Below, piece by piece: positions 738 to 63,080 of a stretch of DNA of 64,000 nucleotides. Origin of the DNA: an uncultured Opitutales bacterium. GTDB taxonomy: Bacteria; Verrucomicrobiota; Verrucomicrobiia; Opitutales; CAYWEO01. The position numbers and the translations under genes are program-made. The notes below the pieces were generated by a model. The model did no database searches. It was not told the DNA's origin and worked only from the letters and a program-made list of their open reading frames with translations. Position 1 is the first letter of the stretch. The number at the start of each line of letters is the position of its first letter. The stretch spans positions 9,015 through 73,014 of the forward strand of contig CAYWEO010000002.1 in NCBI GenBank assembly GCA_964457855.1. The letters are read 5' to 3'.

Positions 738-1030
738 CGGAGGGGGTATTTTTTGCAAAAACAACCCACTCTTGAACCCTCTCCTAAAAAACTCTCAGGA
801 CCGCATCAAAAGCTTAAGATGCAAGGTAGGCGCGCAAGGTCGAAGCTGCGGAGCTTACTAAAGGTAAGTAAGTAAGCAAGCCAAGATCCGATGCGCAACC
901 CCCCCTGGCATCTTAAGCTTTTGATGCGGTCCAGCTCGCGCGCCGATCGTTCCATCTCAAAATCAAGGCCGTCCCTTTTACCCAGTATGGGAAAAAATAC
1001 CGTTTTTCTTTGAAAGGTTCGGAAGGCGTT
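738..1030. repeat. repeat locus R1: degenerate H3 half (738-770), FB-alpha variant foldback (798-932), FB and linker fragments to about 1030
   Basis: Perfect 25-bp outer stem GGACCGCATCAAAAGCTTAAGATGC (798-822) / GCATCTTAAGCTTTTGATGCGGTCC (908-932). The core shares AGGCGCGC...GATCCGATGCGCAAC with other FB-alpha copies. The apex is altered (see findings). Confidence 0.85.
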
Positions 1031-3944: not shown

Positions 3945-3952
3945 GAATGCCC

Positions 3953-4202
3953 CGCTTTTGAGCGGCGGGTTCTTTGCGCTCGGCATCAATGCCATCACGT
4001 ACGTTAGTACGCTCAGGCATCTTGTCCTCGCGCGCTCGTCATCTTAAGCTAGATAGTTTCTAACGTTTTATAGAACTTTTCATGGAAAGTCGCATCGGGA
4101 GGCATTTTTTGGCACGTAGTGCCAAAAAATGCCTCCCGAATAAAAATTTTTAGGGGGAAGGGTTCGGGAACCCCCCTTTTTTACAAAAAAGGGGGGTTCC
4201 CG
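3953..4202. repeat. repeat locus R2: FB-alpha in reverse orientation (3953-4050), degenerate H1, H2 (4095-4139), H3 variant (4165-4202)
   Basis: CATCACGTACGTTAGTACGCTCAG apex. H2 has a 21-bp stem TCGGGAGGCATTTTTTGGCAC/GTGCCAAAAAATGCCTCCCGA. H3 is CGGGAACCCCCCTTTTTT/AAAAAAGGGGGGTTCCCG. Confidence 0.9.
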
Positions 4203-6780: not shown

Positions 6781-6951
6781 TTCGGAAAACTTTCTTTTCA
6801 GAAGAAAAGAAAAGTTTTCCGAACCTTTCAAAGAAAAGTCGCATCGGAAGGCATTTTTATGGCACGGAGTGCCAAAAAATGCCTTCCGAATAAGAGTTTT
6901 TTCAGGGGAGGTCCGGAGGGGGTTGTTTTTGCAAAAAATACCCCCTCCGGA
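6781..6951 (+). repeat. repeat locus R3: complete H1 (6781-6823), H2 (6844-6889), H3 (6912-6951) array
   Basis: Three consecutive palindromes with the conserved linkers CCTTTCAAAGAAAAGTCGCA and ATAAGAGTTTTTTCAGGGGAGG. The array fills the rlmN-MBL gap. Confidence 0.95.
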
Positions 6952-6979
6952 AAACTCCAACCATCTACATACAATCACT

Positions 6980-12774: not shown

Positions 12775-13084
12775 TTCCGGAGGGGGGCTTTTTAGGTTAA
12801 TTCCGGAGAACCAATTTTTTGCAAAAAAATGGTTCTCCGGGCCTCTCCAAAAAAAACTCTTAATTCGGAAGGCATTTTTTGGCACATAGTGCCAAAAAAT
12901 GCCTTCCGATACCGCTTTTCTTGTGAAAATTAGGAAAACGTCGGAACCTCTGGCGTGGCTTCTATTTCGAGATGACGGGCAGGCGCGCGCGGACGAAATC
13001 CCTGAGCGTACTAACACGTGATGGGATTGAGATCCGATGCGTAACGAACCCGCCGCTCGAAATAGAGGCTACGCCAGAGGTTCC
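12775..13084 (-). repeat. repeat locus R5: reverse-order array with H3 half plus H3 (12803-12840), H2 (12865-12909), degenerate H1, then FB-alpha (12943-13084) overlapping the xseB 3' end
   Basis: FB arms GGAACCTCTGGCGTGGCTTCTATTTCGAG (12943-12971) / CTCGAAATAGAGGCTACGCCAGAGGTTCC (13056-13084). The right arm contains the xseB stop (13069-13071) and its last 4 codons. Confidence 0.9.
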
Positions 13085-21349: not shown

Positions 21350-23548
21350 ATGATCAATGAGGATGTCAAACAGTTAGAAGGAACGGTCGAAAGAATTGTC
21401 TTTTTCAACGAGGAAAATGGCTATTTCGTCGGGGAATTCAGGGTTAACGAAGGGAAGATAATCACCATCGTTGGCATTTTGCCTGCCGTGCACTGCGGAG
21501 AAACGTTAAGGATTAAGGGGAAATGGACCCGACATCCCGAGTACGGAGATCAATTTAAGGTTGAGGGAGTCGAATCTCAATTGCCCGCAACGGTTTATGG
21601 AATTAAAAAATACCTATCCAGTGGCCTGATTGATGGGGTAGGGAAGGGTTACGCCGACCGCATCGTGGATCATTTCGGCGAGGACACCTTTCGCGTTATC
21701 AGTGAGCAATCCGCCCGTTTGAAAGAAGTCCCTGGGATCGGAAAACAGAGGGCGCAAGCGATTAAAAAGTCGTGGGATCAGCAGAGAGTTGTGCGCGACA
21801 TCATGATTTTTTTCCAAACCTACGGGATTACGATTGGGCAGTGTTTACGTTTGCACAAAACCTACGGGGATCGTGCTTGCGAAGTGGTTAAGGCGAATCC
21901 CTACCGCATGGCTCGCGAAATCGACGGCATTGGTTTCAAAACGGCGGACAAAATCGCTTTAAACTTGGGATTTGCGAGCGATAGTCCCTTCCGCATTGAA
22001 GGCGGAATTTTGTTCGGAATGAGCGAGTTAGAGACGAATGGCCACACGTGTCTTGAATTGCAGGTTTTTATCGACTACGTTCTGGGTATTTTGGGTGTCG
22101 AGGAGGAAAAAATCAAGGAACGTCTGAAAGTTCTCATTGATGAGCGGCGTATTATCGATTTGGGGGATGGCAGGGTGCAAAGCGTGAATGCGTACTTGGC
22201 GGAGAGCCGGATCGGCGAGGACGTTTGCAGAATCTTGAAAGCGAAGTCACTTTTGCCACAATTTGACGTAGAATTGGCGCTGCAATGGGTGGAAAAGCGT
22301 CTCGGATTTGATTTGGCGATCGAACAGCGGGATTGGGTCCTCAAAGCCTTGCATTCCAAAATATCGATTCTAACGGGCGGTCCTGGTACGGGTAAAACCA
22401 CCGTTTTAAGGGTTCTGGCGTCGATTTTGCGAGCGAAGAAGGTCAACGTCGTTCTAACGGCTCCAACGGGTCGTGCGGCTCAACGAATGAAGGAGGCTAT
22501 TGGGTTTGAAGCGCGAACGGTTCACCGCTTGTTGAAACTGGAACCTGGTACGAGGCGTTTTTTCCACAACGAAGAGCGTCCGTTAACGGGTGACTTTTTC
22601 ATCGTCGATGAAGCGAGTATGTTGGACATTTATCTCATGAGTGCGTTGATAAAGGCAATCCCAAGCGAGGCCCATGTACTGTTCGTTGGAGACGTTTTCC
22701 AATTGCCGTCCGTGGGTCCTGGAAACGTTTTGAAGGATCTTATTGATTCGAAGTTGATGAACGTCAAATACTTAAAGCGCATTTACCGTCAAAGCGAGCG
22801 GAGTGGTATCATCGAAGTCGCCCACGGAATTCTGGAAGGGGCTCATCTCGTTCCCAACATGAGAGAGCGTATTGAGGATATCGATCCAGCAGGCGACGTG
22901 CATTTTATTAAGGAAATCGACCCGGCGAAATGCGTGGAGATTGTGAAGAAATTGTGCAACGATCAACTGACGCGATGGTACCTTTCGGATCCGATGGCGG
23001 ACGTGCAGGTTTTGGTTCCCATGCACAAAGGAACGGCGGGGATTAGTACGTTTAACGTTGAGCTCCAATCGGTTCTGAATAACCTATCGGCTGCTCAGGG
23101 ACCTGTGGACACGTGGCGCCAATTCCGTGTTGGGGACAGGATTTTGCAGCTCAAGAATAACTACGACAAAAACATCTTTAATGGCGATTTGGGGCGTATC
23201 TTATTCATTGACAAAGAAAAATCCCGCATGGTCATGGACTTTAACGGAGAAGAGGTTGCCTTGGAAGGAGTTGAATTGGAAGACGTCGGGCTTGCCTATG
23301 CAATGAGCATCCATAAATCCCAAGGGAGCGAATTCCCCATTGTTATCATTCCTCTGTTGAAGCAGCATTTCTTGTTGCTGCAGAGGAACTTACTCTACAC
23401 TGCCTTGACGCGTGGGCGGCATAAGGTCTTTTTTGTCGGAGATCCAGTTGCCTACCAAATGGCTGTTCGCAATGCGGAAAGTGTCTCTCGCGTAACGGGT
23501 TTGAAGGAACAGCTCCTGAAATTCGCGAAGATGTTTGGCTTAATTTAG
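21350..23548 (+). CDS. recD2: RecD2-like SF1B ATP-dependent DNA helicase
   Basis: 732 aa. Walker A GGPGTGKTT, DEASML, a helix-hairpin-helix-like region, and the C-terminal SIHKSQGSEF...LLYTALTRG. Confidence 0.9.
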   Translation: MINEDVKQLEGTVERIVFFNEENGYFVGEFRVNEGKIITIVGILPAVHCGETLRIKGKWTRHPEYGDQFKVEGVESQLPATVYGIKKYLSSGLIDGVGKGYADRIVDHFGEDTFRVISEQSARLKEVPGIGKQRAQAIKKSWDQQRVVRDIMIFFQTYGITIGQCLRLHKTYGDRACEVVKANPYRMAREIDGIGFKTADKIALNLGFASDSPFRIEGGILFGMSELETNGHTCLELQVFIDYVLGILGVEEEKIKERLKVLIDERRIIDLGDGRVQSVNAYLAESRIGEDVCRILKAKSLLPQFDVELALQWVEKRLGFDLAIEQRDWVLKALHSKISILTGGPGTGKTTVLRVLASILRAKKVNVVLTAPTGRAAQRMKEAIGFEARTVHRLLKLEPGTRRFFHNEERPLTGDFFIVDEASMLDIYLMSALIKAIPSEAHVLFVGDVFQLPSVGPGNVLKDLIDSKLMNVKYLKRIYRQSERSGIIEVAHGILEGAHLVPNMRERIEDIDPAGDVHFIKEIDPAKCVEIVKKLCNDQLTRWYLSDPMADVQVLVPMHKGTAGISTFNVELQSVLNNLSAAQGPVDTWRQFRVGDRILQLKNNYDKNIFNGDLGRILFIDKEKSRMVMDFNGEEVALEGVELEDVGLAYAMSIHKSQGSEFPIVIIPLLKQHFLLLQRNLLYTALTRGRHKVFFVGDPVAYQMAVRNAESVSRVTGLKEQLLKFAKMFGLI

Positions 23549-23914
23549 GCGGCGTAGCGATTTGTAATCGCTAGGGTTCGTTAAGACAGAGCCGATTTTG
23601 AGCGGCGAGTTCGTTGCGCATCGGATCTCGATCTCATCACGTACGTTAGTACGCTCAGAGATCTCGACCTCGTGCGCCTGCTCGTCGTCTCAAAATCGGC
23701 TCTGTCTGAAAAATTCCAACCCCGTCACGTACGTTAGTACGCTCGGGGGTTAAAATTTTTCCGTAGCCGTCCCTATCATCTCGAACTTACTACGCCGCCC
23801 CACCTTAAGCGAAGATAAATTCCCATTTTTTTGCTCAGCATGAGCAAAAAATAACGCTTTTCTTTTGAAGGTTCGGAAACTTCTTCTTTTCTCGGGAAAA
23901 GAAAAGTTTCCGAA
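23548..23914. repeat. repeat locus R8: FB-beta (23548-23799) with a complete FB-alpha nested in one arm (23585-23706), then an H2 variant (about 23824-23852) and H1 (23872-23914)
   Basis: Two apex motifs (CATCACGTACGTTAGTACGCTCAG and GTCACGTACGTTAGTACGCTCG). Inner perfect 18-bp arms GACAGAGCCGATTTTGAG/CTCAAAATCGGCTCTGTC. Outer arms GGCGGCGTAG/CTACGCCGCC. Confidence 0.9.
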
Positions 23915-25732
23915 TTATCTAAAGAATTTGGGTTCTATGTGCAGCCGTGCCTGCTTGGCGTACAAATCTTTTGTTTTGACGTCGCCTCTCCAGCGTTTGA
24001 CGTCGAAGAAGGTGACATAGAGCATGAGGGCGAGGAAGAGGAAGAGGAACGTCATCTGAATGGCGTTGATAAATTTTTCGTTTAAAGGGCGACGGATGAT
24101 GGCTTCGATTCCGGCGAAGAGGATGTGTCCGCCGTCGAGGATGGGGATGGGCAGGAGGTTGAGGATCGCAAGATTGACGTTGAGGACAATGACAAACCAG
24201 AATAACAGGCGGAACCCCTCTGTGGAGAATTTGTGGAGGGCTCGGATGATACCTGGGGGACCCATGAGCTGGTTAAGTTTGACATCAGAGTCTTTATTGA
24301 CGAGGCTTTTGAGGGTATTCCACGTCATGAGGAAGCTGTCTTGGCACTGCTTAAATGGGTTAACATGAACGATTTTCGTGGGTTGCGCGATCTGAACGCC
24401 GAGTAGAGCGATCTCTTGCGGTTTTTTGATCGAAAAAATGACATTGGAGAGTTGAAGCTCAACGACCGTATCGGATTTCGCGCGCTTAACGGTCAGAATA
24501 GACGATGGATGTTTTTGCAAACCGTTCATCATGTCCTGCAAAGAGCCGATTTTTTGGCGATTGAGGGAAACGATGCGATCACCTTCCTTAAGGGCGTCAA
24601 GGATCGAGCCAACCCCTTGGACGTCAAAAATTTGCAGCCAAGCATGCGTCTCGGGCTTGCTCAAATCCGACTTTGCCGTCGTTTTTTTCGTATCTGGCTG
24701 GACTGGAATGATTTCCGCGAAAGATTTTTGTTCTCCCTTCTGCCAAATTTTCACAACTGGGCGCGTATAGGGCACCATTTGCGGTGTGAGCAAAATGTTG
24801 AGGTCCTTTTCGCCACGCCGGACCAGTAATTGAATGGGGTCGGTGGGATGCTTTCTTACAATTTCTAGCAAGGTGAATAGGGAATACGCGGGGTTTCCGT
24901 TGAGCTCACAAATAATGTCTTTGGGGCGTATTCCTGCGAGGAAAGCGGGAGAATTTTCCATAATTTCGGCGACCTCGAGGGTCTGTTTCGGCCAAATTCC
25001 GATGAAACGGATGAGGTGGTTTGAAAAGGGACCTGTTTTCAGCAATTCCGGAAACACATCTACGTCCAACAACTGCCCCTTGCGTTCGATTTTAAACGTT
25101 ACCTTTGGCCTCGCATCGGGCGTGCGTCCGGCACTCATCATGATAGTTCGGTTAATTTCGCCAAAATTAGAAACCGTTACGCCATCGATACTTATAATGC
25201 GATCTCCTGCCATCAAACCCGCCGTAAATGCCGGGCTTGCAAACGGTTTTTGACTCTTGGAGTCCGTCACCGTTTCCTGTACGAACCCAATCACGGTCGT
25301 TCGCTCCTCTTCGGAAACCGGTTGGCCCACCATCCATAGAATGAACGCTAGTGCAAACGCAAATAGGCAGTTAAAGACCGCTCCCATCACGGAAACGATG
25401 AATTTGTCCCAAAATCCGGCCGGCGGAAGCGGGTGGGCGTCATCCAATTTTCCTCCCTCAATCGATTGCATATCAGCGACTTGTGGTATTGCAACATACC
25501 CACCAAGCGGAATCAACGATAGGCAGTATTCCACGCCGTTGCGTTCCCAAGTAAACAGTTTCGGTCCAAAACCGATCGAAAATCGAGTTACGCGGAGTCC
25601 TCTCTTACGTGCAGCCCAAAAGTGGCCCAATTCGTGGACTAAAATCGATCCGCAAAAGAAGATGATCACTAAAAAAATTGCCCACAAATTCGCAAACAAT
25701 GCGCTAAAAATGCCTAAATTCATAAATGCCAT
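23915..25732 (-). CDS. rseP: RIP site-2 zinc metalloprotease RseP, long multi-PDZ form
   Basis: HELGHFWAA (HExxH) in TM1 and a C-terminal LNLLPIPILDGGH motif. At 605 aa it has a longer PDZ region than the E. coli protein. Confidence 0.9.
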   Translation of the reverse strand: MAFMNLGIFSALFANLWAIFLVIIFFCGSILVHELGHFWAARKRGLRVTRFSIGFGPKLFTWERNGVEYCLSLIPLGGYVAIPQVADMQSIEGGKLDDAHPLPPAGFWDKFIVSVMGAVFNCLFAFALAFILWMVGQPVSEEERTTVIGFVQETVTDSKSQKPFASPAFTAGLMAGDRIISIDGVTVSNFGEINRTIMMSAGRTPDARPKVTFKIERKGQLLDVDVFPELLKTGPFSNHLIRFIGIWPKQTLEVAEIMENSPAFLAGIRPKDIICELNGNPAYSLFTLLEIVRKHPTDPIQLLVRRGEKDLNILLTPQMVPYTRPVVKIWQKGEQKSFAEIIPVQPDTKKTTAKSDLSKPETHAWLQIFDVQGVGSILDALKEGDRIVSLNRQKIGSLQDMMNGLQKHPSSILTVKRAKSDTVVELQLSNVIFSIKKPQEIALLGVQIAQPTKIVHVNPFKQCQDSFLMTWNTLKSLVNKDSDVKLNQLMGPPGIIRALHKFSTEGFRLLFWFVIVLNVNLAILNLLPIPILDGGHILFAGIEAIIRRPLNEKFINAIQMTFLFLFLALMLYVTFFDVKRWRGDVKTKDLYAKQARLHIEPKFFR

Positions 25733-28911: not shown

Positions 28912-29194
28912 TTCGGAAACTTTTCTTTTCAAGAGAAAAGAAATAGTTTCCGAACCTTCAAAAGAAAAGCTATATCGGAAGGCATTTTAGTTCGGCCTGT
29001 AAGGCCGAACTAAAATGCCTTCCGAATACGAAAAGAAAAGAAGAGCAAAATCGGTTTGGCGCCGTCGATTTCGAGATGATAGGCAGGCGCACGAGATCAA
29101 GATGCCTGAGCGTACTAACACGTACGTGATGGCATTGAGATCGATGTGCAACGAACCTAGCGCTCGAAATCGCTACGGCGCCAAACCGATTTTT
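28912..29194 (+). repeat. repeat locus R10: H1 (28912-28954), H2 apex variant (28975-29025), FB-alpha (29047-29194)
   Basis: FB arms AAAATCGGTTTGGCGCCGTCGATTTCGAG / CTCGAAATCGCTACGGCGCCAAACCGATTTT. The right arm ends inside the hsp20 stop codon (29193-29195). Confidence 0.9.
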
Positions 29195-32388: not shown

Positions 32389-32734
32389 TTTCGGGAACCT
32401 TTCTGTTCACGAGAACAGAAAAGGTTCCCGAACCCTCCAAAGAAAAGCGGTATCGGAAGGCATTTTTATCGCCAAAAACCGCTAAGAAAACATCGATTTT
32501 GAGGGGTCGTTTTGTAAAAAATAACTTTGGCCCACCACTTTGAGGGAGACAGTAGTCAGTTTGCCCAGAAACCGAACAGATTCCTGGCACAAACCGCAAA
32601 GAAGGCACCGATTTTGAGATGATAGAGACGGCTTAGAAAAAATTTTACTCCTGAGCGTACTAACGTACGTGATGGGGTAAAATTTTTTCTAAACGGAACT
32701 CTAGCGCTCAAAAGCGACACCTTCTTTGCGGTTT

Positions 32735-32744
<10 letters not shown>
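32389..32744 (+). repeat. repeat locus R11: H1 variant (32389-32432), half H2, degenerate segment, FB-beta (32583-32744) overlapping the tRNA(CAU) 3' end
   Basis: Outer arms CCTGGCACAAACCGCAAAGAAGG (32583-32605) / CCTTCTTTGCGGTTTTGGTGCCAGG (32720-32744). The right arm includes the tRNA acceptor 3' strand and CCA. Confidence 0.9.
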
Positions 32745-32809
<65 letters not shown>

Positions 32810-32923: not shown

Positions 32924-33115
32924 CACGAACTTTTAAGGAAGAATATGAAGATTTCACTCGACAACATCCTGATAAAAAAGTCAAACAAAAGATCGATCGG
33001 TCGAGAGATTTTTTTGATAAAAGGGTGTTTTCTAAACGAACAAAGGCTTCTGAACTAAAAAGCACTTTTTTATAGATTGCAAAATTTTAGAATTTGTTTT
33101 CTAATAGAAGGATTG

Positions 33116-33937
33116 ATGCGTTTATTAAAGGGTTATTGTTTCTTTGTGGTGTGTGCGCTGGGTGTGGCGTGGGCGAGTGGCTTTGGCGTGAAGTACCTGA
33201 AGGAGAAGGAGTTGCCGAAGCTGATAGCTTATACGGAAAATTTTCCGCCGTTCAATTATCCAGATGAGAAGGGGAATGTTGTGGGGATTTCTGCTGACAT
33301 TTTGAAGCATATTGCGAAGGAAATGGGTCTGGCGTTGGAGATTCAGTGTGTTTCGTGGGAGCAGGCTTATGAGAAGACGAGGGCGCGTCAGGTGGGGAAG
33401 GTGGCAGCCAACGTCGTACTGCACTCTGCTGTTCGCACGCCAGAAAGGGAAGGGTTTTTCAAGTGGGCTGGTCCGATTGTGGATGATTACAGTACGTGCG
33501 TATTGGGACTGGGCACAAACCGCAAAATCGCGGCTCTCAAAAAGCTTGCGGATATTGCTCAATACACGGTGGCGCTGATTCCAGATGATGTGGATACGCA
33601 GTATTTGATGCACCAAAAAATCGTTAAGAAGGATACCGGTCGCGTGATCTTCGAAAAAGGCATTACTGAGTGCGTAAAAAGTTTGTACGCAGGAAAATGC
33701 GATTTGATCGTGATGCCATTCGGTCCTGCAAAGATTCAGGCTCAGGATAACCATTTTGATGTTTCCTTGCTAAAGAAAATCCTTCCCGTAAAGGGGCTTG
33801 CGAAGAGAGAAATTTACTTTGCATTTAGCAGGGAAACGTCAGATGATGTTGTGACAAAGTTTCAAAGAATTTTGGATGCATTCAAAAAATCGCCTGCTTA
33901 TTCCAACATGATTAATAGGTATCTCCAAATGTTTTAA
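33116..33937 (+). CDS. periplasmic solute-binding protein (family 3, amino-acid type); orphan, with no adjacent permease or ATPase
   Basis: Signal peptide MRLLKGYCFFVVCALGVAWA. ENFPPFNYPDEKGNVVGISADILKHIAKEMGL is typical of SBP_bac_3. ATG 33116 is preferred over the TTG at 33077. Confidence 0.75.
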   Translation: MRLLKGYCFFVVCALGVAWASGFGVKYLKEKELPKLIAYTENFPPFNYPDEKGNVVGISADILKHIAKEMGLALEIQCVSWEQAYEKTRARQVGKVAANVVLHSAVRTPEREGFFKWAGPIVDDYSTCVLGLGTNRKIAALKKLADIAQYTVALIPDDVDTQYLMHQKIVKKDTGRVIFEKGITECVKSLYAGKCDLIVMPFGPAKIQAQDNHFDVSLLKKILPVKGLAKREIYFAFSRETSDDVVTKFQRILDAFKKSPAYSNMINRYLQMF

Positions 33938-34072
33938 GGGAGAAATTAGTTATCTATTTATTTCGAGAGAAATACTTGACATCCTCTTGGTTGTTATGTC
34001 AACGTCTCCCTGAAGGTCAAGAACCATTTAGAATTTGAGTACTACGTCCTTAACTTTAACAAAAAAAATAGT

Positions 34073-36106
34073 ATGAAAACCAATACATTCTTTAAACACA
34101 TTGCAACGAGTTCCCTCGCTTTGATGATCGGCCTGCAGGCACCATTCGCCTTAGGAATGCTCGATAAAAAAGATAACCCAAGCGCGCCTCAGCAATATCA
34201 AAATACGCAAGACCCTCAACATCAATTGCTTAGAAATCGCTTGCTGAACGAACTCCGTGTATTAAGCGCTGGTCTCTCCGAGCATCTCCGCAACATAAAA
34301 GCAGATAACAGTGATAACAGTGACGACAGTGACGACGAAATATCGATCAATGGGGAAAATTTCAGCATCGAAAGCAAAGAAGGTTTAGATGTCGAAAAAC
34401 AAAAACAAGCACTCAACATTCCAAAAAGAAAGTTCCAAGCACAAGATTTTCGACGTCTCGAATTCCTGCTCGGTAAAGAAGATAGTCTTCAAATTTTCGC
34501 ATTAATGATTCAGAATGGCCTTGATATAAAAGATATTATGAAGGACATTCAAGACGCAAAAGATAAGCACAATCAAACATACAGCAAAAAAAATGCCTTT
34601 TTAGATCTCAAAATCAAGTTTGCCGATGACTATTACAAAGGTGATGGTTCTTTGAAAAATGCTGAGGTTTCTGAACCAGAAAAGATTCAGGATTTCAGCT
34701 ATAAAGCAAATTATGATTATTTACATGAAGGCCATCCCAGGCGTGAAGTTCACCAATTGATTAAGAATCTACATCCGAAACAAATAAAAATATTCAAAAC
34801 GTCTGACTTTTTAGGAGGTTTGAGCTGGTTCGATTTTAAAGAGATGAAGAATGATAAAGGTTACCGTTACTTAGAGTGGGGTACTGGTCGTGATGTCGAG
34901 ATTCGCATAGGTAAAGGTGTTGAGGAATTTGTCAATAAGCGGTCGCCTAGCAAAGGATTGGTTTTTGTTTCTCACGACGGCTATACAAAATTTGTTTTCA
35001 ATAGACGTTATGGAATCGTAAACGATGAAGAAAAAACAAGCTACACCAAAGATTTTTTGGATACATGTTTCAACAGTGAAGAAAAAAACAAACGATTAAC
35101 GGAGATACTCCAACAATGTCATCAATTACGTAAACAATCAGCACCTGTGTTCTCGGAGCAGACATGCAATCGCTTTTTTGATGCTAGATTTGACCTTATG
35201 GTTCATCTCGAAGAGAATAAAGGGCGTTCAAAATTTATTAAAAAATGTTATCAAGATAGTCATCTTGAGGTCAATGAAAGTAAAGGTAGACTAGAGTTGC
35301 TAAACGATAAAAATGAACTCATCAGCGTTGTGATTCCATTTGAGGACTTAGTGGAATGCTTCAAGTCAGTTAAAAAAATTAGTTTTTCGTACGATAGTGA
35401 TCAAATCAACCAAATATTATTCGATAAATTAAGTGCAAAAAATGTGTCACATTTCCAAATATCTAAGGTTGATATTCCAAAACTTTTTAAATGGATTAAA
35501 GAGACAGGGAGTGACACATTTAACAACCGCAAGGAATTCAGTCTCACGTGCTTGCCATACTTTAGTATCAGCAGTCAGCCTAATTATCTCGAATACGTTA
35601 ATACTGGTGTCAGCGTTCCAGAAGATCCTAACGGAGTTAAGCCTTTAATCAATTTCTTAAAAGATCACCCTACAATCGAACGTTTAAATTTGGCCGGTTT
35701 GTGGTTCGACGTGCCCACCATTCTGGAGATTTGCAAAGTCCTACCAAATCTCAAAATACTCGTTATCGGAGTGGGTGGTTATGATGTACCTGGGAATTTC
35801 AAATTTGACAATTTTATACCCTATGGCAGTAGTATGATTACGCTGTATAAATTTTCCGATACATTGAAGATCGAAGCTGAATTGCCAAAAAATGCTAAAT
35901 TGATTGTAGTGTCTGTGTTGCCAACAATCAATAATAACGAAATAAAAATCAAGCCTTATGTTGGAAAGGAACTCAATACTGATTTATTCGATAAAGAGCA
36001 TATGATCATCAAGGGTACAAAGATTGTTTTTGAGGGTAAAGTTAAGTACAACAACGACTTCCAAAACAAGAAAATGGAGAAAGAAATCGAAATTAAAAAA
36101 GAGTAG
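34073..36106 (+). CDS. large secreted hypothetical protein with an acidic DNSD repeat and a C-terminal LRR-like segment
   Basis: 677 aa with signal peptide (SSLALMIGLQAPFALG) and DNSDNSDDSDDE. The C-terminus reads HPTIERLNLAGLWFDVPTILEICKVLPNLKILVIG. It is Lys/Asn-rich and AT-rich by eye. Confidence 0.65.
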   Translation: MKTNTFFKHIATSSLALMIGLQAPFALGMLDKKDNPSAPQQYQNTQDPQHQLLRNRLLNELRVLSAGLSEHLRNIKADNSDNSDDSDDEISINGENFSIESKEGLDVEKQKQALNIPKRKFQAQDFRRLEFLLGKEDSLQIFALMIQNGLDIKDIMKDIQDAKDKHNQTYSKKNAFLDLKIKFADDYYKGDGSLKNAEVSEPEKIQDFSYKANYDYLHEGHPRREVHQLIKNLHPKQIKIFKTSDFLGGLSWFDFKEMKNDKGYRYLEWGTGRDVEIRIGKGVEEFVNKRSPSKGLVFVSHDGYTKFVFNRRYGIVNDEEKTSYTKDFLDTCFNSEEKNKRLTEILQQCHQLRKQSAPVFSEQTCNRFFDARFDLMVHLEENKGRSKFIKKCYQDSHLEVNESKGRLELLNDKNELISVVIPFEDLVECFKSVKKISFSYDSDQINQILFDKLSAKNVSHFQISKVDIPKLFKWIKETGSDTFNNRKEFSLTCLPYFSISSQPNYLEYVNTGVSVPEDPNGVKPLINFLKDHPTIERLNLAGLWFDVPTILEICKVLPNLKILVIGVGGYDVPGNFKFDNFIPYGSSMITLYKFSDTLKIEAELPKNAKLIVVSVLPTINNNEIKIKPYVGKELNTDLFDKEHMIIKGTKIVFEGKVKYNNDFQNKKMEKEIEIKKE

Positions 36107-36160
36107 TCAAACTAAAGGCCCTAGACCATTAGAGTTAAAAATTAACCGACCAATTTTAGG

Positions 36161-36197
36161 ATAGAGCCAATAACCCCGAAGAGGTTATTGGCTCTAT
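36161..36197 (+). terminator. hairpin downstream of the 677-aa gene (terminator candidate, no U-tract)
   Basis: ATAGAGCCAATAACC-CCGAAGA-GGTTATTGGCTCTAT, a 15-bp perfect stem 55 nt after the stop at 36106. Confidence 0.4.
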
Positions 36198-36253
36198 GAT
36201 TAAACCTAAAATTCGCACTCTTTTAAGTACAAAGTAAAGGTCGGTGCGCTCAT

Positions 36254-36336
36254 GCCGTTGGACTTCGCGAGCTGACTTGTTTGGACAAGCTCCAAAAGCA
36301 TTCGTTCCCCGCCGCACAACGGCCTGTTTTTATTTT
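36254..36336 (+). ncRNA. GC-rich structured segment ending in a T-run (candidate small RNA or intrinsic terminator)
   Basis: GCCGTTG (36254-36260) pairs with CAACGGC (36317-36323), followed by CTGTTTTTATTTT. There is an internal hairpin GAGC-TGA-CTTGT-TTGG-ACAAG-CTC. The segment is locally much more GC-rich than the surrounding islet. Confidence 0.25.
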
Positions 36337-36404
36337 CGAGAAAAACATTTGACCTTCCTCAGTTTCAAATGTGAACTACTCAGTCTTCAAAAGGAAAAGT
36401 TTTC

Positions 36405-45527: not shown

Positions 45528-45812
45528 TCGGAAAACTTTCTTTTCAGAAGAAAAGAAGAGTTTTCCGAACCTTTCAAAGAAAAGTCATATCGGAAGGCAT
45601 TTTAGTTCGGCCTTACAGGCCAAACTAAAATGCCTTCCGAACTAAGAGTTTGTTTTGGCCAAAATTTTTGCGCCTTATGGACGTAGGGAACCGCACGATT
45701 TTGAGATGACGAGCAGGCGCGCGAGGACGAGATGCCTGAGCGTACTAACGTACGTGATGGCATCGAGATCCGATGCGCAACGAACTCGCCGCTCAAAATC
45801 GTGCGTTCCCTA
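45528..45812 (+). repeat. repeat locus R13: H1 (45528-45569), H2 apex variant (45590-45640), degenerate H3, FB-alpha (45684-45812) overlapping the recombinase 3' end
   Basis: FB arms TAGGGAACCGCACGATTTTGAG (45684-45705) / CTCAAAATCGTGCGTTCCCTA (45792-45812). The right arm contains the stop (45793-45795) and the last 5-6 codons. Confidence 0.9.
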
Positions 45813-46704
45813 GTGGATGGCAATCGCGGTATGCCTGCACGAGGTTTTTCGTGGAGAGGGAGGTATAGATTTGGGTAGTGGCGATGTTGGCATGGCCGAG
45901 CATTTCCTGAATGGCGCGGAGATCGGCTCCGTTGGTGAGGAGGTGGGTGGCGAAGGAATGTCGGAGCATGTGGGGTTTGAGGTTTTTTTGAATGCCGAGT
46001 TGTTGGGCGTAGTGTTTGATGAGGGCCCAAACCGTCTTTCTGGAAATGGCTCTTCCTCGTTGAGTCAGAAAGACTTTCGCATTTGTCCAACGTTTGACAA
46101 ATTGCGGGCGCGCAACGGTTAAGTAGTTTTTAAGTGCCGTGATGGCCTGGGAACCGATGGGAATGATCCGCTCTTTGCTGCCCTTTCCCATGACGAGAAC
46201 GTATTGGGGATCGAAGTGAACGTGCGTGAGGTCGAGTTCGCAGAGTTCCGTTACGCGCAACCCGCTGCTGTACATGAGTTCGAAGATCGCGCGGTCCCGG
46301 ATACCCTCGTTTGAGTGAAGATTCGGGGCGTTTAACAAGCGCGCAATGTCTTCTACGGAAACGACTTCTGGCAAACGGCGTACCGTCTTTGGATTGCGAA
46401 ATTCTGCCAGAAAACTCTTCTCTAAAACGTTCTCTTGGATTAAGTAACGAATGAGGGTCCGTGCGGCGGATAATTTTCTTGAAATCGTTGTGGAGCAGCA
46501 ACTTGCGTCCATCAACTGCGACATCCATAGCGAAATGTCATTCGGTGATACGTCTTCCCAGCGAGACTTTTTTTGCTGCAATAGAAAAGCGACCAACTGC
46601 TCCAAATCCTTGCCGTAGCTTTGAAGTGTGTTCTTGGACAAACCACGCTCAAGGCCGAGAAACGCCAGAAACGCGCCCACAGACTTCTGTAAAATCGATT
46701 GCAT
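45793..46704 (-). CDS. XerC/XerD-family tyrosine recombinase
   Basis: C-terminal catalytic region HMLRHSFATHLLTNGADLRAIQEMLGHANIATTQIYT. Start trimmed to ATG 46704 (MQSILQKSVGAFLAFL) because 46722-46820 is repeat sequence. Confidence 0.9.
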   Translation of the reverse strand: MQSILQKSVGAFLAFLGLERGLSKNTLQSYGKDLEQLVAFLLQQKKSRWEDVSPNDISLWMSQLMDASCCSTTISRKLSAARTLIRYLIQENVLEKSFLAEFRNPKTVRRLPEVVSVEDIARLLNAPNLHSNEGIRDRAIFELMYSSGLRVTELCELDLTHVHFDPQYVLVMGKGSKERIIPIGSQAITALKNYLTVARPQFVKRWTNAKVFLTQRGRAISRKTVWALIKHYAQQLGIQKNLKPHMLRHSFATHLLTNGADLRAIQEMLGHANIATTQIYTSLSTKNLVQAYRDCHPLGNARF

Positions 46705-46721
46705 GTGATTGTTTGGTTTTT

Positions 46722-46820
46722 CCGGGAAACCCCCTTTTTTATAAAAAAGGGGGTTTCCCGATACCGCTTTTCTTTTGAAGGTTCGGAAACTTTTTCTGTT
46801 CTGGAACAGAAAAGTTTCCG
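46722..46820 (-). repeat. repeat locus R14: H3 variant (46722-46760), linker, H1 (46782-46820), with H2 missing
   Basis: CCGGGAAACCCCCTTTTTTATAAAAAAGGGGGTTTCCCG, then ATACCGCTTTTCTTTTGAAGG, then TTCGGAAACTTTTTCTGTTC/GAACAGAAAAGTTTCCG. Confidence 0.9.
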
Positions 46821-46840
46821 CATATACCCCCACCAGCCTA

Positions 46841-49506: not shown

Positions 49507-49746
49507 TTTCTGGAACCTTTGTTTTCACGAGAAAACAAAATGTTCATGAACCCTCCAAAGAAAAGCGGTATTTTTACACAAAAGCGCAAAAAAGGGCTCC
49601 AAAAAAACTTATCCAAGAGACACCGTAGTAAGTTCGAGATGATAGGGACGGCTACGGGAAAATTTTAACCCTCGAGAGTACTGTAACGTGACGGGGTTGG
49701 AATTTTCCTGTAACGGCACCCTAGCGCTCGAAATCGCTACGGTGTC
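49507..49746 (+). repeat. repeat locus R16: degenerate H1 (49507-49550), linker, FB-beta (49619-49746) overlapping the glgB stop
   Basis: Arms GACACCGTAG (49619-49628) / CTACGGTGTC (49737-49746). The apex variant is TCGAGAGTACTGTAACGTGACGG. Confidence 0.85.
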
Positions 49747-51647
49747 CCCTTATACCTTAAAACCACCGTCGTGAGCGGCGGCAGCATTAAATTGATGGAA
49801 AACGGTTGATCGTTCCAGGTGAGGGGGTTAGTGGGGGTTGCGGTGGAGTTTCCGGTGCCGGAACCTGCGTATTCGACAGCATTGGTGTTGAGGATTTCTT
49901 GCCAGTTACCTGCGTGGGGGACGCCGATGCGGTATTCCCAGCGAATAACGGGGGTAAAATTGCCGACAACGAGGAGGGTCTCCTGCGGTTGATTGCCGAG
50001 ACGTAAATAGCTGAGAACGCTGTTATCGACATCATTGGGGTTAACCCATTGGAATCCAGAGGGTTTCTGGTCGGTTTCTGCCAAGAAGGAGTACTTACGG
50101 TAAAGGCAATTCAGATCAGCGACAACGCGTTGAATACCAGCATGATCTGCGTACTCCAAAAGATGCCAATCGAGACTGGATTGTTCGTTCCACTCGGACG
50201 TTTGGCCGAATTCTGAGCCCATGAAGAGGCATTTTTTCCCCGGCCAAGTCCACATGTAGGCGTAAAGAGCGCGCAACGTCTGCGCCTTTTCGGCAATCGA
50301 TAAGGATCCCATTTTCGTGATGAGGGAGCCCTTTCCGTGAACAACTTCGTCGTGCGAGAGGGTTGAGATGAAGTTCTCAGAGTCATGATAAAGTCTTTCG
50401 AAAGTCAGCAGATTGTGCTCGAATTTGCGGTAAATAGGGTCCCTTGAGAAATACTTTAGTGTGTCGTGCATCCAACCCATGTTCCACTTGAAATCGAACC
50501 CAAGTCCGTGATCGGACGTGGGATGCGAAACGCGCCCAAAAGAAGTGGATTCCTCCGCTATCATAAGGGATCCGGGATGGTATTTATGCACTAAGTCGTT
50601 GACTGTACGCAAAAATTCGATCGCATCAATATTTTCCTTTCCGCCGTAACGATTGGGAATCCATTCCCCCTCTTGCCTGGAATAATTTAGGTACAGCATC
50701 GAAGCAACGGCATCCACACGCATGCCATCGATGTGGAAGCGATCAAACCACGACAAAGCACTCCCAATCAGGAAGTTACGCACTTCGTTTCGCCCATAAT
50801 TAAAGATCAGCGTCCCCCAATCCTGATGCTCTCCCTGGCGCGGATCCTCGTGTTCGTATAGACATGTCCCATCAAATTGTGCGAGCGCAAAAAAATCTTT
50901 CGGAAAATGCCCAGGTACCCAATCCATGATAACCCCAATGCCGTTTTGATGCAGCACATCAACGAGATACATGAAATCCTGCGGAGTCCCATACCGGTGC
51001 GTTGGTGCAAAAAACCCCGTCACTTGATACCCCCAAGAGCCCGAAAACGGATGCTCTGCCAACGGTAAAAATTCAACGTGCGTAAAGCCCATCTCCTTCA
51101 CGTACTGCGCAAGCTCGTCCGCCACTTCCGGGTACAAAAATGGCCGATTTCCGTCCTCAACCACGCGTTTCCAAGAGCCCAAATGCACCTCGTAAATAGA
51201 AATGGGTTGCTGTTGCCAATCCTTTGTCTGAGAACGCTTTTCGATCCATTCGTCGTCCCCCCAGGTGTAGTTCGAAACGTCGCAAATAATCGATGCATTA
51301 AACGGCGGGGATTCGAAATAAGTCGCATACGGATCGCTCTTTAACACCAGTTGATTGTGCGCATTGATCAACTCGTACTTGTATTTCATACCCGCCTCAA
51401 GCCCCGAAATGAACAACTCCCACAACCCCGATCCTACCCGATGCATGAGATTGCGACGCCCATCCCAATGGTTGAAATCGCCTACAACCGAAACCCTCTT
51501 CGCATTCGGCGCCCAAACAACGAACGCAACTCCTTGCACACCATCAACAAAACGAACGTGCGCCCCTAACTTCCGATACGCGTGATGATACGTCCCCTCA
51601 TGAAACAAATAAATCTCCTCCTGAGAAAGCGTTTGACTCCTATGCAC
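49737..51647 (-). CDS. glgB: 1,4-alpha-glucan branching enzyme
   Basis: 636 aa with GH13 motifs (DWVPGHF, GMRVDAVASM, EESTSF, LSHDEVVHGK). Confidence 0.95.
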   Translation of the reverse strand: MHRSQTLSQEEIYLFHEGTYHHAYRKLGAHVRFVDGVQGVAFVVWAPNAKRVSVVGDFNHWDGRRNLMHRVGSGLWELFISGLEAGMKYKYELINAHNQLVLKSDPYATYFESPPFNASIICDVSNYTWGDDEWIEKRSQTKDWQQQPISIYEVHLGSWKRVVEDGNRPFLYPEVADELAQYVKEMGFTHVEFLPLAEHPFSGSWGYQVTGFFAPTHRYGTPQDFMYLVDVLHQNGIGVIMDWVPGHFPKDFFALAQFDGTCLYEHEDPRQGEHQDWGTLIFNYGRNEVRNFLIGSALSWFDRFHIDGMRVDAVASMLYLNYSRQEGEWIPNRYGGKENIDAIEFLRTVNDLVHKYHPGSLMIAEESTSFGRVSHPTSDHGLGFDFKWNMGWMHDTLKYFSRDPIYRKFEHNLLTFERLYHDSENFISTLSHDEVVHGKGSLITKMGSLSIAEKAQTLRALYAYMWTWPGKKCLFMGSEFGQTSEWNEQSSLDWHLLEYADHAGIQRVVADLNCLYRKYSFLAETDQKPSGFQWVNPNDVDNSVLSYLRLGNQPQETLLVVGNFTPVIRWEYRIGVPHAGNWQEILNTNAVEYAGSGTGNSTATPTNPLTWNDQPFSINLMLPPLTTVVLRYKGTP

Positions 51648-51695
51648 ACTTTAAAGTATGTTATGTCTTTTGTTAATTTGCAATCATTTAATGCC

Positions 51696-52016
51696 TCGGA
51701 AACTTTTCTGTTCCAGAACAGAAAAAGTTTCCGAACCTTCAAAAGAAAAGCGATATCGGAAGGCATTTTTTGGCACTACGTGCCAAAAAATGCCTTCCGA
51801 ACAAAGATTTTTTTGGAAAGGGTCCAGGGAAACCTATTTTTTGCAAAAAATGGTTTTTTCGGCACAAAACATCTAAAAACAACGAACCAAAGGACGCCGT
51901 AGTAAGTTCGAGATGACGAGCAGGCGCGCGAGGATTTTAACCCCTGAGCGTATTGTAATACGTGATGGGGTTGAAATTTGAGCGCAACGAACTCGCCGCT
52001 CGAAATCGCTACGGCG
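51696..52016 (+). repeat. repeat locus R17: the full four-module array H1 (51696-51735), H2 (51756-51800), H3 (51824-51862), FB alpha/beta chimera (51905-52016)
   Basis: All modules lie in canonical order between the divergent glgB and dnaG starts. The FB ends 8 nt before the dnaG ATG. Confidence 0.95.
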
Positions 52017-52023
52017 AAGAAAT

Positions 52024-53859
52024 ATGCCGCTTATAAAGCGTAGTACGATCGACGATATCAAGCAGAGAGTGAACATTTTTGATGTTGTTTCTGCGTATGT
52101 GACGTTGAAGCGAGTGGGGTCGAGTTGGAAGGGATTGAGTCCATTTACGCATGAGAAGACGGCGTCGTTTTTCGTGCATCCGGAGAAGGGTCTTTTCAAG
52201 TGTTTTAGCAGTAATTGCGCTGGGGACGTGTTTCGGTTTATCCAGTTGAAGGAGAATGTTTCGTTTCAGGAGGCAGTGGAGATTTTGGCGAAACGTTTCA
52301 ATATCACGGTGGAGTACGAGCAGTCTGGACATGACAATTTTGATTCGGCGCAACAGCAATCGGCGAAGGGGGACATTTATGGCTTGTATGAGTTTGCGGT
52401 GCAGTTTTTTCAACAGCAGTTCTTGGCGAAAAACGACGTTGCGGAAAGCGTTCGGTCGTATTGGGTTAACGAGAGGAAGTTGGCGCTGAAAACGGCAGAG
52501 GCGTACAAGATTGGATTTGCGCCGGTTGATGGCCAAGTATTTGTCAAGCAAGCACTTGCAAAGGGATATTCTCGGCAGGCAATCGAGCAATCGGGATTGT
52601 TTTTTTATTCGTCGAAAACGGAACAATTTTATTCGCGGTTTCGTGGGCGCCTGATGATTCCTATTCGGGATATCCAGGGACGTCCGATCGCGTTCTCTGC
52701 GAGGCAGCTTTTTTGTACGCCTAAGGAAGATCCCTCGTACGACGCGAAATACATCAATTCTCCGGAAACGCCTATCTTCATCAAGGGCAACACGTTATTT
52801 AACATCGATGTCGCGCGTAAGCACATCCAAGAGACGAACTTTTTCGTGCTCGTTGAGGGGCAAATCGACGCGATGCGGTGTTGGGAATGCGGGATTTTGA
52901 CGGCGGTGGCGCCACAGGGGACGGCGATTACGGATCAGCAGTTGCAACTGCTGCATCGGTATTGCGGATCTGTGAGGTGTTTTTTAGATGGCGATGGCGC
53001 AGGGCAAAAAGCGGCCTTGCGGGCTTTGCCGATGGCGCTCAAGTGGGGGATTGAGATGACCTTTCTTCCGCTTCCGGAGAAAACCGATCCAGACGCCTTT
53101 TTATTGGCCAATGGGAAGGCCGGATTGGATATTTTGTCGAAAAATCAGCAGAGGCCAATGCAATTTGCGACAAACGCCCTTTTTTCGGGTGTCGATTCTC
53201 CGATTCAGAAGCAAAAGGCTCTGCAGAGTATTTTTGAAATAATTTTGCAATGCGGCTCCAAAGTTTTGCAAAAAGACTATCTGGCGGACGTTTCCGAGAC
53301 TATTTGCGTTGATAAGCAAGCACTTGAGAGCGATTTTCTCGTATTTTCGCAGGGGAAAAACCGAAAAGATCTTGCTCAACAAGACTATTTTTTTCAAAAA
53401 CAACCAAACTCAAAATTGACAAGTGTTGAATATCAGCTTTTGTTATTATTACTGAACTATGAAAACCTTGTCAAAAGCATTGTCACCAACCTTCACCCAG
53501 ATTGGTTATCGCCAGGGGACCTATATTCAAAATTGCTTATACGTGCCTTGGCGGTTCTTCATCAGGACCCTGATGACAACCCCGATCCCCATTCCCTTAT
53601 TCAACGTATTGCGGAGGGAGAGGAAGAAAAAAACGTTCTTTATCTCATTTTCGAAGAACAACCTCAGTTTGAGGACCCAAAAGCTGTAGCCAACCTGTGT
53701 ATTCAAGCTGTCTACAAAAATCACTTAAAGGAACGCATCGCTCAGATTGATCGGGAAATTGCTTCCCTTCCACCGGGTAGCGAAAACCTAAAAGCTCTTC
53801 AAGCAGAACGCCTTCAATTAAGAAAATTACTTCACTCTCCATTACCGAATATTCTCTAA
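52024..53859 (+). CDS. dnaG: DNA primase
   Basis: N-terminal zinc-ribbon region (degenerate, see findings), RNA polymerase core ([11 protein letters not shown]), and TOPRIM ([10 protein letters not shown] ... [11 protein letters not shown]). Confidence 0.9.
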
Positions 53860-56554: not shown

Positions 56555-56842
56555 ACTTCCAGAGTTTCCGACCCTTCCAAAGAAAAGCCCTCCGAATGTT
56601 GCAAATTTGCATCTTAAGCGATGGCCCACTCCCCACAAGGTGGCTTAGCAAGTTTGAGATGATAGAAACGGCTACAAAAAAAATTCAATCCTAAGCCATC
56701 GAACCACACTCGACAGAATACCGCCGATTTTAAGATGACGAGCAGGCGCGCGAGGGGGAAATGCCCGAGCGTACTAACGTACGTGATGGCATCGAGATCC
56801 GATGCGCAACGAACTAGCCGCTTTAAAATCGGCGGTATTCTG
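56555..56842 (+). repeat. repeat locus R19: H1/H2 fragments, half FB-beta, FB-alpha (56714-56842) abutting the tRNA-Val(GAC) 3' end
   Basis: Arms CAGAATACCGCCGATTTTAAG / CTTTAAAATCGGCGGTATTCTG. The right arm overlaps the encoded CCA by 2 nt. Confidence 0.85.
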
Positions 56843-56917
56843 GTGGGAGATACTGGATTCGAACCAGTGACCCCTAGCGTGTCATGCTAATGCTCTAACC
56901 AACTGAGCTAATCCCCC
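56841..56917 (-). tRNA. tRNA-Val (anticodon GAC)
   Basis: Hand-folded. Acceptor GGGGGAU/AUCUCCC, D arm GCUC-AGUUGGUUA-GAGC, anticodon arm UUAGC-AUGACAC-GCUAG, T arm ACUGG-UUCGAAU-CCAGU, CCA encoded. Confidence 0.85.
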
Positions 56918-57068
56918 AAAAGAGCTTTTAAAAGAACCCAAAAAACGTAAAACATCAAGTCAAAAATCACGCAAATTCCATTTTATTGCGCAAAACGACA
57001 ATTTTGACTCATTTTTTATGCTTTTAATCTTGAGATTGTTAAGAAATTCCTGTGGTTTGAAAATACGT

Positions 57069-57142
57069 GGGGGATTAGCTCAGTTGGTTAGAGCGCTAGT
57101 ATCACACACTAGATGTCGTTGGTTCGAATCCAATATCTCCCA
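57069..57142 (+). tRNA. tRNA-Val (anticodon CAC)
   Basis: Hand-folded. Acceptor and D arm are the same as in the GAC isoacceptor. Anticodon arm CUAGU-AUCACAC-ACUAG, T arm GUUGG-UUCGAAU-CCAAU. CCA is not encoded. Confidence 0.85.
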
Positions 57143-57146
57143 TTCT

Positions 57147-57478
57147 CGTGGCCAGGAAGGTGTCAATTTTGAACGCTAGAGTTCCGTTACAAAAAAATTT
57201 CAACCCATCACGTACGTTAAGTACGCTCAGGGATTGAAATTTTTTTGTAGCCGTCTCTATCATCTCGAACTTGCTACGCCACATCGCGAGGAGTGGGATT
57301 TTCTTCAGAGGATTCCAAAAATTGACGCCTTCCTGGCCACGATGGGTCGAAGCAAATTTGTAAAATTCCAAAATTCGAAAGGCATTTTTGGCCTGTAGGG
57401 CCAAAAATGCCTTTCGATACCGCTTTTCTTTTGAAGGTTCGGAAACTTCTTCTGTTCTGGAACAGAAAAGTTTCCGAA
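57147..57478 (-). repeat. repeat locus R20: long hairpin (57147-57341) enclosing FB-beta in reverse orientation, then H2 (57375-57417) and H1 (57438-57478)
   Basis: 24-nt arms CGTGGCCAGGAAGGTGTCAATTTT (57147-57170) / AAAATTGACGCCTTCCTGGCCACG (57318-57341) with one mismatch. The hairpin starts 5 nt after tRNA-Val(CAC). Confidence 0.9.
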
Positions 57479-63079: not shown

Positions 63080-63080
63080 T

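Follow-up and report, generated by a model that had tools for sequence, protein, structure and literature searches.

The 64,000-bp stretch analysed here (the window), from contig CAYWEO010000002.1 of an uncultured Opitutales bacterium, carries at 23548-23799, at the 3' end of a recD2-type helicase gene, what are probably two nested members of one non-coding hairpin repeat family, a Verrucomicrobial, ERIC-like miniature inverted-repeat element. An outer beta-type member has its 5' arm split by a complete alpha-type member, and both hairpins end in the same apex.

The outer beta element (23548-23799, + strand) measures 128 bp without the insert and is bounded by a 10-bp terminal inverted repeat, GGCGGCGTAG at 23548-23557 and CTACGCCGCC at 23790-23799. 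The G at 23548 both opens this repeat and closes the recD2 stop codon (TAG, 23546-23548); the ends and the start at the stop codon, like all other strings quoted in the original prediction, an earlier reading of the sequence, lie at the positions given there. All parts lie on the + strand: the basal part of the beta 5' arm, which contains GGCGGCGTAG (23548-23583), the inner alpha element (23584-23707, 124 bp), the upper, AT-rich, beta-specific part of the 5' arm (GAAAAATTCCAACCCCG, 23708-23724), the beta apex (23725-23744) and the complete beta 3' arm, which ends with CTACGCCGCC (23745-23799). The inner element had been described as a whole unit with 18-bp arms at 23585-23706. It is a complete unit, but its extent needed adjustment: the terminal inverted repeat AGACAGAGCCGATTTTGAG is perfect over 19 bp (23584-23602 / 23689-23707) and reaches 22 nt at 95% (23581-23602 / 23689-23710), and the element is therefore placed at 23584-23707. 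Its apex (23637-23656) reads T-CA-CGTAC-GTTA-GTACG-CTC and is identical to that of the outer beta, the two forming a 20-nt direct repeat 88 nt apart. The inner alpha matched the covariance model of the family over its full length (113.5 bits, E = 7e-27), while the interrupted beta gave a partial match at 23711-23759 (39.6 bits).

The nesting was examined by removing 23584-23707 and aligning the remainder to the other beta copies of the window; alignment without splicing was misled by the likeness of the alpha and beta arms. The segments compared were the intact betas at 39053-39197, 49612-49752, 32590-32740 and 57146-57290 and a hybrid copy at 51888-52024. The spliced 128 bp, including the basal 5' arm, are colinear from end to end with all four intact betas and the hybrid, and the segment is missing from all five; it is therefore not part of the beta consensus, in agreement with the insertion originally proposed. 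The empty site is GTT(A/T)(A/C)|(G/A)(A/G)AAAA, and the string earlier pointed out in the uninterrupted copy at 49619-49746, CCTGTAACGG, is present there as the reverse complement of GTTAC|AGG. In the 5' arm of the beta, the added alpha separates GTTA from GAAAAA. In the intact beta at 39053-39197, the internal loop that divides the basal from the upper stem is asymmetric; TTCCGTTA makes up its unpaired side of 8 nt, and the insertion point lies at the 3' edge of this side. The alpha therefore landed in unpaired sequence and neither hairpin lost pairing.

The closest relative of the inner alpha in the window is the alpha at 45684-45812 (93% identity over 106 nt, 45696-45801), whereas the identity of the host beta to other betas does not exceed 86% (39098-39184). 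This difference fits a comparatively young insert in an older beta host.

The junctions of the nested copy read TTA|AGACAG...CTGTCT|GAA, with no microhomology beyond 1-3 nt. Direct target-site duplications, of TA or any other sequence, were sought at the nested copy and the other 12 window copies and found at none; TA flanks occur only at 45684-45812 (TAG...CTA) and possibly at 3996. The arms of the inner element had been taken for inverted flank duplications, a view that the composition of the arms does not bear out: 10 bases (CGATTTTGAG) are family consensus and 9 bases (AGACAGAGC) are copy-specific. The 9-bp stem matches the beta on neither side of the insertion and arrived as part of the alpha unit. 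The outer repeat GGCGGCGTAG/CTACGCCGCC is likewise no flank duplication; it is a subfamily terminal repeat that recurs in other copies. GGCG(G/C)CGTAG is common to the outer element and the copies at 29108, 51946 and 13004, where the related strings are GGCGCCGTAG, CGCCGTAG and GGCGTAG, respectively.

Every copy in the window has 9-25 bp of extra perfect complementarity beyond the family consensus, here called a private stem. Two of these stems recur: one, CTTTGAGGGAGAC.GTAG at 39053/39180 and 32538, also reads CTAC.GTCTCCCTCAAAGTGGTG at 39180 and 32533, and the other, ATAGAAGCCACGC, is found at 12953 and 39247. Private stems thus reappear at other loci as solo ends, which indicates that ends move along with the unit, and the stems are therefore layered into core, subfamily and private parts. 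At the copy beside the tRNA-Met gene (32735-32809, - strand) the outer repeat (32583-32618 / 32707-32744) covers 8 nt (CCTGGCAC) of the acceptor 3' strand, with the inverted copy of this functional sequence beyond the element; the tRNA sequence itself must be the template and not the copy. The wider remark of the original prediction, that inserted copies are bounded by inverted flank duplications, holds at this tRNA-Met copy but fails as a general rule, permutation tests on 12 copies giving no significant inverted flank duplication apart from it.

The private stems could also be read as target stems captured by insertion into pre-existing host hairpins, in which case AGACAGAGC would be a small, older hairpin of the beta arm. 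In other phyla the apex does form the loop of short terminator-like hairpins with A and T runs (L002, L023, L010, L006, L041), AAAATCGGTTTGGCGCC..GGCGCCAAACCGATTTT surround the copy at hsp20, with a T-rich tail after them, and repetitive extragenic palindromes (REPs) have been reported inside palindromes (PMC3733652). This explanation is nevertheless very improbable: no other beta has anything at the insertion site, most outer stems in the window lack T-runs, the stem of the tRNA-Met copy includes constrained tRNA sequence, and at other loci some private stems reappear alongside element ends.

The original prediction treated alpha and beta as two families. They are better described as one, because they have a common basal module and an identical apex and are joined by a natural hybrid. 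With copies oriented on the apex, the basal module reads GATTTYGAGCG(GC/CT)(GA/AG)GTTC(C)GTT on the left and GCC(TGC/GTC)..(A)TCATCTCRAA on the right; alpha and beta differ only in the middle stem, which is GC-rich in alpha and AT-rich in beta. The covariance model was built from 27 copies (alignment A1), 11 from the window and 16 from Verrucomicrobia bacterium GWC2_42_7, a related metagenome-assembled genome, and 23 of its 28 consensus pairs have compensatory changes. In 56 copies, drawn from all sources, standard pairs fill 93.4% of the pair cells, compared with 66% in shuffles and 30-43% with slid partners; because the alignment had been fitted to the model, this figure is biased towards the structure.

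With the covariance model, 13 copies were found in the 64 kb, 12 at full length plus the interrupted beta. Units are 119-145 bp long and all copies in the window are intergenic. Intact betas are located at 39053-39197 (+), 49619-49746 (-, the empty-site reference), 32583-32744 (-, at tRNA-Met) and 57146-57342 (+), the last of these a chimera with two alternative right ends. The alpha closest to the inner element lies on the - strand (45684-45812); the other alphas are at 56714-56842 (-), 12943-13084 (-), 29047-29193 (-) and 3948-4060 (+). The natural hybrid, with an alpha base and a beta upper stem, occupies 51895-52013 (-), and a diverged copy 798-932 (-). Solo arms or fragments are found at 39224-39259, 56625-56691, 32533-32555 and 933-962; two solo arms bear the same private outer stems as full copies at other loci. 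The hybrid, the chimera and the solo arms indicate that exchange between copies is frequent.

Such exchange is the basis of the principal rival explanation, which involves no transposition: the nested structure would have arisen by copy-choice (template switching) or by homologous or illegitimate recombination between dispersed copies, for instance by a polymerase that leaves the beta at its internal loop, copies a whole alpha elsewhere and returns. The junctions without target-site duplication, the hybrid at 51895-52013, the chimera at 57146-57342 and the solo arms agree with this, as do signs of intrastrand templating, namely the inverted 3' end of tRNA-Met and a perfect mini-hairpin in the beta 5' arm, TAGCGATT-TGT-AATCGCTA (23554-23575, + strand). 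The mini-hairpin is present in the minimum-free-energy fold of the DNA; other beta copies read TAGCG-ATTTCGAG-CGCTA at this site, and it looks like a quasi-palindrome perfected by template switching, a process of which such a change is a classic mark. Recombination of this kind is nevertheless a somewhat unlikely origin of the nested locus. The insert is exactly one unit with its own 19-bp repeat, so that the polymerase would have to switch precisely twice at the foot of the donor hairpin, the junction microhomology does not exceed 1-3 nt, and the arrival of copies behind unrelated genes is left unexplained.

Two further arrangements of copies were observed. The tRNA-Val genes at 56841-56917 and 57068-57143 (anticodons GAC and CAC) form an inverted duplication with an element after each; the beta is intact at the CAC locus, and at GAC its left half and apex are replaced by a whole alpha together with 24 nt. 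In GWC2_42_7, head-to-tail arrays of 2-3 un-nested copies about 22 nt apart occur (L039 4243-4639; L009 4113-4374).

Under the preferred explanation, the insertion of one family member into another, the unit would move or be copied as a folded single strand, with its limits set by the base of the hairpin and not by a fixed terminal sequence. Preferred landing sites would be the unpaired loops of other hairpins and positions immediately after genes or tRNAs. The strongly conserved apex would be recognised by a trans-acting factor that the element itself does not encode, and hairpin-templated correction (intrastrand template switching), of which the inverted tRNA-Met end and the mini-hairpin at 23554-23575 are signs, would then keep the arms complementary and could lengthen them.

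The original prediction regarded the nesting as classic evidence for past mobility. An extra complete unit does lie in the beta, and to take it for a trace of past mobility is reasonable. Several points weigh against this reading. Mobility is deduced from the nesting only, and the host has no close relative in the collections. The nested copy has no target-site duplication, no transposase was found among the 14 window proteins scanned, and an all-against-all comparison of the open reading frames (ORFs) around 42 apex-bearing loci found no protein family in common. Nesting was seen in one case among about 60 copies examined, so that the targeting of loops rests on n = 1 plus analogy. The frequent recombination or copy-choice indicated by hybrids, chimeras and solo arms could also build a nested structure. 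Finally, the better-folding strand is in most cases not that of the mRNA, so that a reading at the RNA level is tentative.

The predicted shape of the region is a three-way junction in which the outer stem closes two hairpins with identical tips; the composite fold keeps both hairpins and the outer stem. As RNA, the 266-nt region folds at -127.9 kcal/mol (z = -10.8; none of 200 shuffles as good) and as DNA at -72.9 kcal/mol (z = -10.6), while the alpha alone folds at -41.7 kcal/mol as DNA (z = -8.9). No terminator-like site was found within 23548-23799 by a simple terminator scan, and no T-run follows CTACGCCGCC. The present effect of the locus is most likely a very stable Y-shaped structure, as predicted by folding, in the 3' untranslated region of recD2. 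It is probably neutral or, as has been described for ERIC in Yersinia, a modulator of 3'-end stability.

Most copies in the window lie directly 3' of a stop codon or tRNA, with the apex typically 40-66 nt past the stop codon or tRNA end, and four of the six tRNAs in the window are followed by a copy 0-3 nt after their 3' end. The TCAC...CTC strand is sense to the upstream gene in about 27 copies and reverse in about 8. In Planococcaceae the element has the opposite orientation and is found in 16S leaders and between tRNA-Asp and tRNA-Phe. Of 56 copies (alignment A3), 52 fold more stably on the GAGCGUACUAACGUACGUGA strand (GAGCG...UGA), with a mean advantage of 7.7 and a maximum of 28 kcal/mol; this strand places tandem G.A plus G.U beside the apex stem. 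This strand is usually antisense to the upstream gene; the tRNA and rRNA operons of Firmicutes are the only places where it is sense.

These properties bear on another explanation, that the two-tipped Y in the 3' untranslated region of recD2 is a functional RNA under selection, for example a protein-binding platform, a processing site or a stabiliser. The very stable fold (z about -10.8), the strong covariation within the family, the orientation-biased position of copies directly after stops and tRNAs, and the reported modulation of mRNA stability by ERIC (PMC2229807) speak for it. It is nonetheless improbable. The structure is branched in only 1 of the 13 window copies and in none of about 45 copies of other genomes, and a selected function of the Y is unlikely because this shape is unique among the roughly 60 copies; moreover, an ordinary alpha shares 93% identity with the inner unit, and within the region there is no terminator-like T-run or promoter signal and no Rfam match.

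ERIC, also named IRU or RU-1 and known from Enterobacteriaceae and Vibrionaceae, is the closest known kind of repeat. ERIC elements are multi-copy, non-coding imperfect palindromes, about 120-130 bp long, that lie between genes in either orientation and are co-transcribed behind genes (PMC2229807, PMC2759123); they affect mRNA stability, as described in Yersinia (PMC2229807). The window element resembles them in size class, in being non-coding and multi-copy, and in its intergenic position behind genes. The apexes are also alike, an E. coli ERIC (locus L045) reading T-CA-CTTAC-TTAT-GTAAG-CTC where the window element has T-CA-CGTAC-GTTA-GTACG-CTC, with a compensatory change in the stem. The ERIC primer region CACTTACTTATGTAAGCTC has the same design, spacing and flanks; its stem differs by a compensatory pair and its loop differs as well, and the likeness extends over only about 20 nt. 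A model built from Verrucomicrobia only matched the canonical ERIC between ybhI and ybhJ (L045) at full length (28.7 bits, E ~3e-4 for 0.24-0.3 Mb). Similarity of the arms was not detected: arms-only hidden Markov models (HMMs; A1) missed both L045 and the nuoL-nuoM repeat (L044), and blastn gave E = 1. ERIC has served for typing since 1991. Joined together, the two standard ERIC primers form a 44-mer; each of the 5,426 E. coli genomes contains it as an exact match, with a median of 9 sites per genome. Sharp (1997) and Wilson and Sharp (2006) are said to have described long forms of ERIC, in which about 70 bp are inserted at particular internal positions.

ERIC is nevertheless not the family of the window element. 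TA termini and TA target duplication define ERIC as a MITE, a transposable element of the miniature inverted-repeat kind (PMC2759123, PMC3184786), and are absent here, where the ends are unfixed and carry private complementarity; the host phylum also differs. The E. coli ERIC (L045 113-236) gave a sub-threshold, full-length match to Rfam family RF02818 (V_AS5; 46.9 bits against a gathering threshold of 96), and because the canonical ERIC matches it at full length, this Vibrio RNA AS5 family appears to be an ERIC-type repeat. The window region has no V_AS5 match at E <= 10. The dissimilar arms, the absent TA features and the missing V_AS5 match together place the window element outside ERIC. 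At the elements no Rfam family was found, whether gathering thresholds were applied (the window plus 14 loci) or the cut-off was relaxed to E <= 10 (the region), and a literature search by sequence found nothing.

With REP, REPIN and BIME sequences, the second group for comparison, the elements have in common that they are clustered, mosaic hairpins, sometimes inside palindromes, whose stems vary by complementary changes. GTAG-tagged REPs are abundant in Opitutus terrae, and palindromic repeats are known inside other palindromes (PMC3733652); the beta ends, CCGTAG...CTACGG, likewise present outward-facing GTAG/CTAC, which the alphas mostly lack. REP units, however, are 20-40 bp long with conserved stems (PMC3733652), whereas the present units are 120-145 bp long and most conserved at the apex. 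GTAG-tagged REPs are mobilised by REP-associated tyrosine transposases (RAYTs); no RAYT gene was found beside any copy examined.

Classical MITEs (Correia/NEMIS, RUP, Nezha, Chunjie) are similarly small and non-autonomous, with terminal inverted repeats, RNA hairpins and a location at gene 3' ends, and the generic features of MITEs are present here: terminal inverted repeats, small size, no coding capacity and many copies. Nesting and mosaics of bacterial MITEs have been taken as traces of mobility (PMC3184786). The classical families differ in having fixed, insertion-sequence-related terminal repeats and direct target-site duplications, neither of which was seen here.

Quasi-palindrome template switching would explain the copy-specific outer stems, the mini-hairpin at 23554-23575 and the inverted tRNA-Met end. 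This type of mutagenesis is reportedly covered by the Ripley model and by work of the Lovett laboratory. It is, however, a mutational process on existing palindromes and does not by itself disperse them to new loci.

Integron attC sites, protelomerase targets, ssoA-type single-strand origins, group II intron domain V, sarcin-ricin or kink-turn mimics and rRNA boxA were considered and dropped, as their defining motifs or contexts do not fit the dispersed copies, the asymmetric apex and the absence of an R'/R'' core. A sequencing or hairpin-adapter artefact was likewise rejected, given the conserved mismatches in the imperfect arms, the copies in genomes of isolates, and the presence of ERIC in 5,426/5,426 E. 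coli genomes.

The apex extends beyond this genome. The exact 19-mer CACGTACGTTAGTACGCTC, the apex without its leading T, was found in 42 stretches of a species-representative genome collection, against a chance expectation of about 4 (2 x 596 Gb / 4^19). These stretches belong to Verrucomicrobia, Bacteroidetes, Firmicutes and Gammaproteobacteria, and nearly all sites form the tip of an imperfect hairpin with lineage-specific arms. In minimal cases a short terminator-like hairpin with A/T flanks has the apex as its loop (L002, L023, L010). The identity of the apex across phyla is partly a matter of ascertainment because the loci were retrieved by the exact apex; nearby copies have loop variants and the compensatory stems CGTAC, TGTAC, CGTAT and CTTAC, with constant TCA/CTC flanks. 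Homology of the arms between phyla was not detectable by arms-only nhmmer or blastn. A Pantoea copy (L014 139-248) is orthologous to the E. coli nuoL-nuoM repeat (L044 600-715; apex CACGTACTTAAGTACGCTC), which has arms unlike those of ERIC but a near-identical apex and is found, with a median of 3 sites per genome, in nearly every E. coli genome.

A phage vector was considered and not supported: the exact apex is absent from viral contigs, and a degenerate apex occurs in 18 viral contigs, about our own chance estimate. About 8 of these 18 matches have a hairpin context (L052/L059, L056/L061, L055, L057, L067, L069; IMG/VR contigs), so that some predicted (pro)phage contigs do carry such elements.

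A tentative alternative, possible at best, is that the real unit is an apex cassette of about 21 nt, built of T-CA, a 5-bp stem around a 4-nt loop and a final CTC and most often TCACGTACGTTAGTACGCTC, which caps unrelated intergenic hairpins across phyla, those of ERIC and nuoL-nuoM included. The cassette would be recognised by a trans-acting factor that mobilises hairpins or binds RNAs, with arms captured or extended in layers, and alpha-in-beta might then be a side-branch of layered growth. If true, it would make ERIC-type repeats a pan-bacterial superfamily and provide a handle on their spread.

Taken as the nesting of two ERIC-like family members, the locus itself is of small significance, being ordinary selfish-repeat behaviour in a 3' untranslated region. 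Its wider value lies in ends that are defined by structure and by layered private stems instead of fixed termini plus target duplication, in the preference for the base right after stop codons and tRNA 3' ends, and in a cross-phylum apex that shares its design with ERIC. We know of no account to date of how ERIC spreads, or of any cognate enzyme. MITE cores from different bacteria have been reviewed as lacking similarity (PMC3184786); a shared apex would permit phylogenetic profiling for a partner protein and direct binding or cleavage assays.

The recD2-type helicase ORF extends from 21350 to 23548 (+), and its product contains the Pfam domains OB_YrrC, HHH_RecD2, AAA_30, SH3_13 and UvrD_C_2. 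The closest database relatives of this RecD2 are about 52-54% identical and belong to Verrucomicrobia and Opitutales, including Verrucomicrobia bacterium GWC2_42_7, whose assemblies are mutually 100% identical; another relative has no element copies at the corresponding locus. The exact protein was found in one 2.3-kb Logan contig only, the sole public contig for this recD2, which stops 28 nt into the repeat; dense near-perfect palindromes of this kind break short-read assemblies. For the M50 peptidase of the window, no record was found in the collections searched.

Separate from the nested elements, a perfect palindrome, TTTTTTGCTCA-GCA-TGAGCAAAAAA, lies between the convergent genes at 23827-23851. 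It is likely a bidirectional terminator between recD2 and the convergent gene, and was not flagged by the simple terminator scan. A hairpin repeat of a different family, TTCGGAAAC..GTTTCCGAA (23854-23918), adjoins the 3' end of the convergent M50 peptidase gene (Pfam Peptidase_M50).

A gene for an XerC/D-type tyrosine recombinase (45796-46833, - strand) has its TAG stop codon inside the outer inverted repeat of the alpha at 45684-45812. It was considered as a gene associated with the element and set aside, since by appearance it is an ordinary XerC/D-type recombinase.

At least three further hairpin-repeat families, unrelated to the apex family, form mosaic intergenic arrays in the window, with sites at 6782-6954, 12800-12940, 51694-51862, 62912-63080 and 23854-23918. 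Their cores are TCGGAAGGCATTTTT..GGCACGTAGTGCC.. (10 copies), TCGGAAACTTTTCTTTTC.. (9-13 copies) and CGGGAAACCCCCTTTTTTATAAAAAAGGGGGTTTCCCG (7 copies). Between tRNA genes, the G+C content falls to 0.41-0.42 at 33000-39000, a stretch that contains three long ORFs with no Pfam match (34073-36103, 36405-37418 and 37572-38864) and may be an island.

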